This document shows, piece after piece, positions 35,616 to 35,936 of a stretch of 38,787 bases of DNA. Made by a program: the position numbers and the translations under genes. Under the pieces are notes generated by a model, which saw only the letters and a list, made by a program, of their open reading frames with translations, was not told the origin of the DNA and did no database searches. Position 1 is the stretch's first letter. The number at the start of each line of letters is the position of its first letter. The stretch lies in assembly GCF_003334385.1 (NCBI RefSeq), contig NZ_QOWN01000040.1; one strand, 5' to 3'. The DNA is from Escherichia coli. GTDB lineage: Bacteria; Pseudomonadota; Gammaproteobacteria; Enterobacterales; Enterobacteriaceae.

Positions 35616-35711
35616 TCAGTCAACCAGTTCCCGGATCAGTTCCAGGATTGCTATCACTGCGTTAGCCACAGCAACAACCGCCCTGAGAACGATGATTAAC
35701 CTGTTAATCAT
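35616..35711 (-). CDS. 31-aa hydrophobic DinQ-like type I toxin candidate (copy 1)
   Basis: MINRLIIVLRAVVAVANAVIAILELIRELVD with GGAGAA 4 nt upstream. It is conserved in copy 2, whereas the upstream part of the 98-aa track ORF is not. It resembles E. coli DinQ (MIDKAIIVLGALIALLELIRFLLQLLN, from memory). Confidence 0.6.
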   Translation of the reverse strand: MINRLIIVLRAVVAVANAVIAILELIRELVD

Positions 35712-35936
35712 CCGCTTCTCCATCAATGGAGAAAGAACACCGTGGTTTGCCCTTACATTGCCTGTCGCCACGTTTTCTATAGTGTCAGTTATAGACAGTT
35801 CTTCTCCGGCCAGAGCACCAAAACCAGCACCACCTGATGTTTTGGCCAGGACTTGCAACCTGTTCATCCCGGTGAACGATATGCCGGAAAGAACGTGCCT
35901 CAAAGCTGACACACCGAGTATATACTTATACTGTGC

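Follow-up and report, generated by a model that had tools for sequence, protein, structure and literature searches.

The dinQ/agrB locus of Escherichia coli K-12 is, as Weel-Sneve reportedly described it in 2013, a type I toxin-antitoxin system. Here we analyse a relative of this system on a 38,787-nucleotide (nt) stretch of E. coli DNA (contig NZ_QOWN01000040.1; hereafter 'the window'), in which two palindromes cover the Shine-Dalgarno (SD) sequence as well as the start codon of a toxin open reading frame (ORF) that is present in two tandem copies. It is very probable that these palindromes are RNA hairpins of the tandem dqlB initiation regions, homologous to the dinQ hairpins SL5 and SL6, and that they take part in a dinQ-type mechanism, as homology and folding both suggest.

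Translation control of dinQ has been established by selective 2'-hydroxyl acylation analysed by primer extension (SHAPE), mutagenesis and in vitro translation in the study that also named the dql genes (dqlA and dqlB) and found four regulatory elements in most dql untranslated regions (UTRs) (Kristiansen et al. 2016, PMC5066626). In its +1 form the dinQ mRNA is inert: element 2 (G94-G106) is taken up by element 1 (U16-C28), and element 3 (U167-U178), thus left free, pairs with element 4 (A182-G187, the SD) to form SL5 (C173-G187), the SD hairpin that blocks translation (PMC5066626). Once the first 43 nt are lost, element 2 captures element 3 and the SD is freed; binding of the small RNA (sRNA) AgrB to G88-A119 re-closes SL5 and triggers RNase III cleavage (PMC5066626). 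A further 22-nt stem-loop, SL6 (G194-C215), starts one base before the GUG start codon and is found in both the +1 and the +44 forms (PMC5066626).

The locus in the window consists of two annotated dqlB/AgrB type I toxin-antitoxin modules arranged in tandem, and the plasmid that carries them is conjugative and of IncI1 type. The NCBI Prokaryotic Genome Annotation Pipeline (PGAP) names both toxins 'DinQ-like type I toxin DqlB', with 31-codon coding sequences (CDSs) that begin at the AUG in question, and the NCBIfam DqlB model NF041473 matches both peptides over residues 1-31 of 31. A megablast search against plasmids matched the region in 2,922 enterobacterial plasmids, nearly all of them conjugative, and identified both ORFs as RefSeq dqlB; a 99.7%-identical IncI1/B/O plasmid has both dqlB CDSs at equivalent positions, flanked by a thermonuclease gene and trbA. 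We also considered as a start the in-frame upstream AUG at 35723 (MEKRM...) and rejected it: it has no SD, it is CUG, CGG, AGG or ACG in other members of the family, and the NCBIfam model covers only residues 5-35 of this longer form.

Both palindromes lie where the first-pass annotation had placed them, on the minus-strand mRNA over the SD and the AUG, as judged by reading the sequence and by scripted extraction. In the DNA letters of the minus strand, copy 1 reads TTCTCCAT-TG-ATGGAGAA at 35733..35716 and GATGATTAAC-AG-GTTAATCATC at 35712..35691, with the GGAG located six nt upstream of the AUG at 35711, and copy 2 reads TCCTCCAT-TG-ATGGAGAA at 36417..36400 and GATGATTAAC-CT-GTTAATCATC at 36396..36375. 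The two had been described as nested; they are in fact adjacent, with 3 nt (GCG) between them. Copy 2 retains both, as had been noted, the SD element with one mismatch (C·A). Since a 2-nt centre is unable to form a loop, the folded hairpins differ from the palindromes as drawn: the SD hairpin folds as 7-8 base pairs (bp) with a UUGA loop (-8.5 kcal/mol in copy 1, with 8 bp, and -5.9 in copy 2), and the 10-nt arms around the AUG, which are indeed perfect, fold as a hairpin of 9 bp with a 4-nt loop (-6.7 kcal/mol) and not as 10-2-10. The folding z-score of the 54-nt initiation segment of copy 1 is -2.85. Dinucleotide shuffles predict 0.13 perfect palindromes per window when the arms must reach 10 nt and the spacer may not exceed 8 nt, which puts the start-codon palindrome far beyond chance by itself; if arms of 8 nt suffice, the expectation rises to about 4.7, and so the SD palindrome by itself is not significant. 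It gains significance from lying on the SD, from recurring in both copies and from the covariation in the family described below.

The published dinQ elements 1-4 and SL6 are recovered exactly from the K-12 coordinates, and the window aligns base for base with SL5 and SL6 (dinQ: ...UUCUCACUCCAU-CGC-AUGGAGAAAACGG-GUGAUUGAUAAAGCAAUCAUC; copy 1: ...GUUCUUUCUCCAU-UG-AUGGAGAAGCGG-AUGAUUAACAGGUUAAUCAUC), the second palindrome being equal to SL6 both in its 22-nt span and in its offset from the start codon. By this alignment the first palindrome is the positional homologue of SL5 and the second that of SL6. As both hairpins match structures already mapped in dinQ, the first-pass annotation correctly rediscovered a known feature. 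The two systems share a small helical toxin characterised by I-I-V-L ... L-E-L-I-R, a divergent AgrB sRNA with a 5' end complementary to approximately 35-45 nt of the toxin's 5' UTR, the UTR itself being about 200 nt long and containing S1, SL2 and SL4, the four elements, whose pairings are predicted to exclude one another, and the SD hairpin (SL5) and 22-nt start-codon hairpin (SL6) at equivalent positions. The window locus differs from dinQ in being plasmid-borne and a tandem duplicate with its own sRNA seed for each copy, in its SD hairpin (8 bp and a 4-nt loop in copy 1, 6 bp and a 3-nt loop in dinQ), in its start hairpin (9 bp and a 4-nt loop versus 8 bp and a 6-nt loop) and in the length of its toxin (31 amino acids (aa) versus 27 aa in DinQ).

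For the wider family we collected 29 dql/dinQ initiation regions, 21 of them non-redundant and used for the counts, from IncI1, I-gamma, K2/Z, X1, X3, X4, X5, L/M, N, HI1B, HI2 and FII plasmids, three genomes and K-12. A profile search of genome contigs with the DqlB/DinQ alignment gave only three loci, and plasmids were then sampled singly; a metagenome scan with the coding 14-mer CTGGAACTGATCCG gave 120 loci, all of them chance matches with no dql gene among them. All four bases of GGAG lie in a local hairpin in 21/21 members, with loops of 3-7 nt. The arms of this hairpin vary by member (CUCCAU/AUGGAG, CUCCAG/CUGGAG, CCUCCC/GGGAGG, CUCCC/GGGAG and, in the IncL/M members, a different stem, GCUCU/GGAGC): once the alignment is anchored on the register, CUCC:GGAG stands out as an invariant core between covarying pairs on its flanks (U-A to G-C, A-U to C-G). 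A plain MAFFT alignment of positions -30..+24 had to be rejected for this stem, as variation in loop length puts its 5' arm out of register. With the arms re-anchored on the predicted register and the loops padded with N, which biases the count towards structure, the covariation score is 0.210, as compared to 0.107 in shuffles (0/500 reach 0.210) and at most 0.07 for slid partners. RNAalifold provides an independent check: on 15 unfitted UTR alignments it recovers SL2, SL4, the SD hairpin and the start hairpin. Taken together, conservation and covariation of the SD hairpin extend over 18-21 members. The start-codon stem could be read from the plain MAFFT alignment, in which pairing holds in 99% of cells and double changes are seen at two pairs (A-U to G-C in the dinQ clade). 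The IncK2/Z plasmid NZ_CP141251.1 (dqlB at locus 561-644) encodes a 27-aa DqlB with an internal deletion, and its SD hairpin is weakened by a change of AUGGAG to ACGGAG that leaves a 4-bp stem; this may be a decaying copy.

The same set of sequences bears on two other readings of the palindromes. The start-codon element is a perfect 10-2-10 palindrome in DNA, as might suit the operator of a dimeric protein, a cruciform or a recombination site, and an RNA from the opposite strand would fold equally well (z = -4.6 and -3.3; single-sequence folding is blind to strand), with the convergent ORF at 35377-35553 (+) in principle able to read into the region. A role in the DNA or in the opposite strand is nonetheless very improbable, given how the elements vary: all 13 of the 13 one-sided changes in the start stem, and three more in the SD stem, yield G·U on the sense strand, which would be C·A on the other strand and breaks the symmetry of the DNA, and this argues for RNA structure in the mRNA rather than for a DNA palindrome or an antisense RNA. 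Moreover, the SD arms change while pairing is kept and the loop ranges from 3 to 7 nt, a poor fit to a fixed protein site, and in all members the positions of the elements coincide exactly with the SD and the AUG. We give as little credence to the palindromes being a by-product of the SD motif and of the coding sequence (M-I-N-x-L-I-I) with no structural role. Codons 1-2 (AUG AUU) and 6-7 (AUC AUC) are indeed partly self-complementary, and a palindrome with 8-nt arms is, as mentioned, no rarity in a sequence of this length. However, synonymous sites in the start stem are nearly frozen, with a third-codon-position entropy of 0.17 bits in stem codons versus 0.95 bits in codons 8-31: Leu5 is the rare codon UUA in 17/17 distinct CDSs, and the sole variable third position in the stem (AAC/AAU) keeps its pairing by swapping C-G for U·G. 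The dinQ peptide differs (M-I-D-K-A-I-I), yet its stem is kept by the A-U to G-C double change, and the SD stem lies in a non-coding UTR and covaries. Hairpins of the mRNA, as in dinQ, therefore remain the preferred reading; their coordinates and those of the other features of the two modules are compiled in Table 1.

Table 1. Features of the two dqlB/AgrB modules, in window coordinates.
Feature	Position	Strand	Sequence or property	Basis or remark
Copy 1 SD hairpin	35716..35733	-	UUCUCCAU-UG-AUGGAGAA; SD GGAG 35721-35718	Homologue of dinQ SL5, elements 3:4
Copy 1 start-codon hairpin	35691..35712	-	GAUGAUUAAC-AG-GUUAAUCAUC; AUG 35711-35709; Arg4	Homologue of dinQ SL6
Copy 2 SD hairpin	36400..36417	-	UCCUCCAU-UG-AUGGAGAA, one C·A mismatch	5-bp core, -5.9 kcal/mol
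Copy 2 start-codon hairpin	36375..36396	-	GAUGAUUAAC-CU-GUUAAUCAUC; Leu4	
dqlB copy 1 CDS	35616..35711	-	31 aa, MINRLIIVLRAVVAVANAVIAILELIRELVD	PGAP; NF041473, 61.3 bits (cutoff 35)
dqlB copy 2 CDS	36300..36395	-	31 aa	PGAP; NF041473, 66.2 bits (cutoff 35)
Copy 1 element 3	35726..35738	-	GUUCUUUCUCCAU; predicted to pair with element 4 (SD) or element 2	Duplex energies
Copy 1 AgrB target with element 2	35784..35827	-	Element 2: GGCCGGAGAAGAAC	Also 3' strand of stem S1
Copy 1 putative primary 5' end, element 1 and 5' strand of S1	35880..35910	-		Homology to dinQ +1
Copy 1 putative -10 box	35922-35917	-	TATACT	
Copy 1 terminator hairpin	35567..35601	-	Inverted repeat	Terminal stem-loop in folds
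Copy 2 AgrB target and element 2 region	36469..36521	-		Duplex with AgrB-like sRNA 2, -59.8 kcal/mol
AgrB-like sRNA 1	35973..36060	+	Divergent from dqlB copy 1	Rfam RF02891, 47.7 bits (gathering score 40)
AgrB-like sRNA 2	36716..36801	+	Divergently upstream of copy 2	Rfam RF02891, 51.8 bits (gathering score 40)

The putative +1 of copy 1, at about 35910, follows from comparison with the dinQ +1 (GUUAGCUCUGAGGCA in dinQ, GUCAGCUUUGAGGCA in the window). For copy 2 the predicted primary end is near 36605, and in both copies a processed end would lie some 45-60 nt further downstream. In the predicted full-length mRNAs of both copies S1, the SD hairpin and the start hairpin all form, and the probability that the SD is unpaired is 0.001-0.025; the folding check proposed in the first-pass annotation thus finds both hairpins closed. 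Its suggestion that the primary transcript is translation-incompetent likewise holds up as a prediction: a dinQ-type inert primary transcript is well supported by membership of the dinQ family, the homology to SL5 and SL6, the closed folds and the covariation. The predicted energies of the 1:2, 2:3 and 3:4 pairings are -28.9, -13.9 and -8.5 kcal/mol in copy 1, -25.2, -13.2 and -5.9 in copy 2 and -27.2, -18.5 and -6.2 in dinQ, and both copies have the energy ordering of dinQ. In the dinQ control, RNAfold closes the SD in the +1 form, opens it in the minimum free energy (MFE) structure of the +44 form and closes it again when the AgrB site is blocked. By ensemble free energy, freeing the SD of copy 1 costs 5.0 kcal/mol for the +1 form, 3.1 for the +44 equivalent and 4.9 with the AgrB site blocked, a pattern parallel to that of dinQ (3.7, 3.2 and 5.4, respectively).

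Several observations pull the other way. The copy 1 SD hairpin stays closed in the MFE structure at every 5' truncation, with a probability of being unpaired of at most 0.06, and that of copy 2 is present in the MFE structure at most truncations and opens only marginally, whereas opening is seen at +44 in the dinQ control; truncation does not lower the cost of opening the SD of copy 2; and the margin of the 2:3 over the 3:4 pairing is about 5 kcal/mol in the window versus about 12 in dinQ. The switch is thus less clear in silico in the window because its 2:3 competitor is weaker than that of dinQ. Furthermore, the alignment behind the SD covariation count leans towards structure through its anchoring, the putative +1 sites come from alignment alone, and the published structure and translation experiments, from which we argue by analogy, concern the dinQ mRNA and not that of dqlB. 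Two readouts of the switch, the mean unpaired probability per nt and the ensemble cost of releasing the four bases of the SD together, give differing pictures, neither of them decisive. On balance, the models support an inert primary transcript well and make activation by 5' processing plausible, the latter being weakly reproduced in silico for copy 1 and not for copy 2.

These energetics invite comparison with tisB/istR-1, with which dqlB would, by analogy, share an inert primary transcript activated by 5' processing, and with which it shares a structured SD region and a divergent sRNA with its target in the 5' UTR, at a distance from the SD. There is no sequence relationship between the two, and no Rfam match to IstR/tisB at the gathering threshold anywhere in the window. 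In tisB the SD stays closed after processing and translation proceeds via a standby site (PMC5066626). Were dqlB to behave likewise, its SD hairpin would be too stable for the 2:3 pairing to displace and would remain closed in every form of the mRNA, a standby site or another helper would be needed, and AgrB would not re-close the SD but would either block the standby site or act through RNase III cleavage. The persistence of the SD hairpin on truncation, where the dinQ control opens, is what such a model predicts, as is the balance of a copy 1 SD hairpin stronger than that of dinQ (-8.5 versus -6.2 kcal/mol) and a weaker 2:3 pairing (-13.9 versus -18.5 kcal/mol); and the authors of the dinQ study were unable to exclude a standby mechanism even for dinQ (PMC5066626). 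We nevertheless consider it unlikely: all four elements are present with the energy ordering of dinQ, the copy 1 cost falls on truncation and returns when the AgrB site is blocked, its +44-equivalent value matching that of dinQ +44 (3.1 and 3.2 kcal/mol), and thermodynamic predictions are unreliable at the level of 1-2 kcal/mol.

Under the preferred, dinQ-type mechanism, the 5' end (element 1) of a primary transcript of about 346 nt would pair with the purine-rich element 2 in the AgrB target to form the long stem S1, leaving element 3 free for the SD (element 4), so that the mRNA would be translationally inert and shielded from AgrB. Processing at the 5' end would strip element 1, upon which element 2 would compete for element 3, the SD hairpin would loosen and translation would be switched on. 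Binding of the divergent AgrB-like sRNA to element 2 would re-close the SD hairpin and probably trigger RNase III cleavage; upon plasmid loss the sRNA would decay and the toxin would be made. The start-codon hairpin would lower initiation efficiency constitutively: by analogy with dinQ, where SL6 persists in the translatable +44 form, it is probably a constitutive damper of initiation and not a gate or regulatory switch.

The predicted fold of each AgrB-like sRNA resembles that of agrB; in sRNA 1 it comprises a free 5' seed followed by a stem-loop and a terminator. The predicted cognate duplexes, in which the 5' seed is cognate-specific, span about 44-52 nt of mRNA including element 2, with energies of -54.7 kcal/mol for sRNA 1 with mRNA 1 (mRNA nt 84-127) and -59.8 kcal/mol for sRNA 2 with mRNA 2. 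Cross-pairing appears possible for sRNA 2 with mRNA 1 (-52.7 kcal/mol) and poor for sRNA 1 with mRNA 2 (-29.9 kcal/mol). As sRNA 2 fits both mRNAs and sRNA 1 only mRNA 1, the modules are predicted to be partly orthogonal.

The two copies differ at the centre of the start-codon palindrome (35701-35702). The first-pass annotation was right that the difference changes codon 4 (Arg or Leu) and leaves the palindrome intact; the letters it gave, CT and AG, are those of the plus strand, and the mRNA has AG in copy 1 and CU in copy 2. The copy 1 dinucleotide is the exact reverse complement of that of copy 2 and of the other dqlB genes examined, and the whole 22-mers of the two copies are mutually reverse complementary. 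Codon 4 is NUG in every other dqlB examined; the AG (Arg4) form occurs in 0 of the 72,556 plasmids of PLSDB, a single record (NZ_OZ547214.1) carries it among 5,426 complete E. coli genomes, and of the five differences that separate the window from its nearest relative over 1,451 bp, two make up the centre doublet. Judging from the sequences, a one-step template-switch inversion of the palindrome centre looks like the most economical explanation. The inversion leaves the stem intact and places a basic residue where DinQ has Lys4. A more novel reading, which we consider unlikely, is that in the IncI1 copies an extended SD hairpin has shifted control from the dinQ-type 2:3 switch to a permanently closed, tisB-like, standby-dependent region and, as a separate matter, that the start palindrome may serve as substrate for template-switch inversions of its centre that recode codon 4 from Leu to Arg with the stem undisturbed; the Arg4 form, with its single public record, looks like an example. 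A second adjacent doublet, at 35648-35649, encodes Ile22 in the window versus Leu22 in the nearest relative and is identical to copy 2 of the window; it may reflect gene conversion between the tandem copies.

The tandem duplication, with a period of approximately 684-740 bp, takes in every part of the module, from the toxin and its UTR to the sRNA and a small convergent ORF. The duplicated units are 35546-36060 and 36230-36801; the toxin and its initiation region are 94% identical between them, and the 5' UTRs and sRNA seeds have diverged. The convergent ORF (35377-35553, +), which converges on dqlB copy 1 and is part of the duplicated unit, encodes 58 aa; related plasmids have it as a hypothetical protein, and no NCBIfam family matches it. 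A degenerate paralogue lies in the second repeat unit at 36115-36243 (+).

Also among the closest known systems are dqlB/agrB of pOXA-48 (IncL) and pOXA-484 (IncX3), which are toxic, rescued by agrB and plasmid-stabilising by post-segregational killing; dqlB is reported on 67% of IncI1 plasmids (PMC12365149, PMC12317039). The window copies belong to the same annotated family, toxicity and rescue having been demonstrated for those homologues; the mRNA hairpins were not analysed in these papers (PMC12365149, PMC12317039), and each of the two systems is described as a single agrB/dqlB locus versus the two tandem modules here. With hok/sok (and pnd) the modules share the general scheme of plasmid addiction by a toxin with an mRNA that is produced in an inert fold. 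However, hok is locked by a 5'-3' fold-back and activated by 3' trimming, which is not seen in dqlB, and neither its cis-encoded overlapping antisense RNA nor its translational coupling to mok is seen in dqlB; the dqlB mRNA folds with the 5'-internal stem S1, and the only sok match is at a separate locus. That match, a full-length Rfam sok at 29782-29938 (-) scoring 125.6 bits, marks a second type I addiction module, of the hok/pnd type, which lies about 6 kb away from the two dqlB copies.

As an addiction module, dqlB/AgrB is widespread among resistance plasmids of the IncI1, IncL/M, IncX and IncB/O/K/Z groups. An SD lock in common with dinQ helps to predict how the toxin is silenced, and bears on whether antisense-based curing could release it. 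To the literature the present analysis adds the covariation of the SD hairpin across the family, synonymous-site evidence for selection on the start-codon hairpin, and the indication that the IncI1 copies have tighter energetics for the published switch. These additions leave the known picture unchanged: the feature is already known as SL5/SL6 of the dinQ/dql family.

A few further sequence features of the window may be noted. Inspection by eye only, with no scoring, revealed no LexA box (CTGT-N8-ACAG) at either of the putative dqlB promoters. The sequence ACCTGTTTGTTCAGCCAGGA, which has been given as a putative LexA site of the dqlB gene of plasmid pTF2 (PMC12211044), occurs exactly at 36518-36537 (+); here it sits not at a promoter but in the SL2 region of the copy 2 5' UTR, about 70-90 nt downstream of the putative +1. 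Finally, the window contains two other long perfect palindromes far above chance: TTAATGCCTCATT-TT-AATGAGGCATTAA at about 31636-31667, with 13-nt arms, and the terminator-like GGCCTGAAAA-CGCTGTC-TTTTCAGGCC at about 30366-30392, with 10-nt arms.

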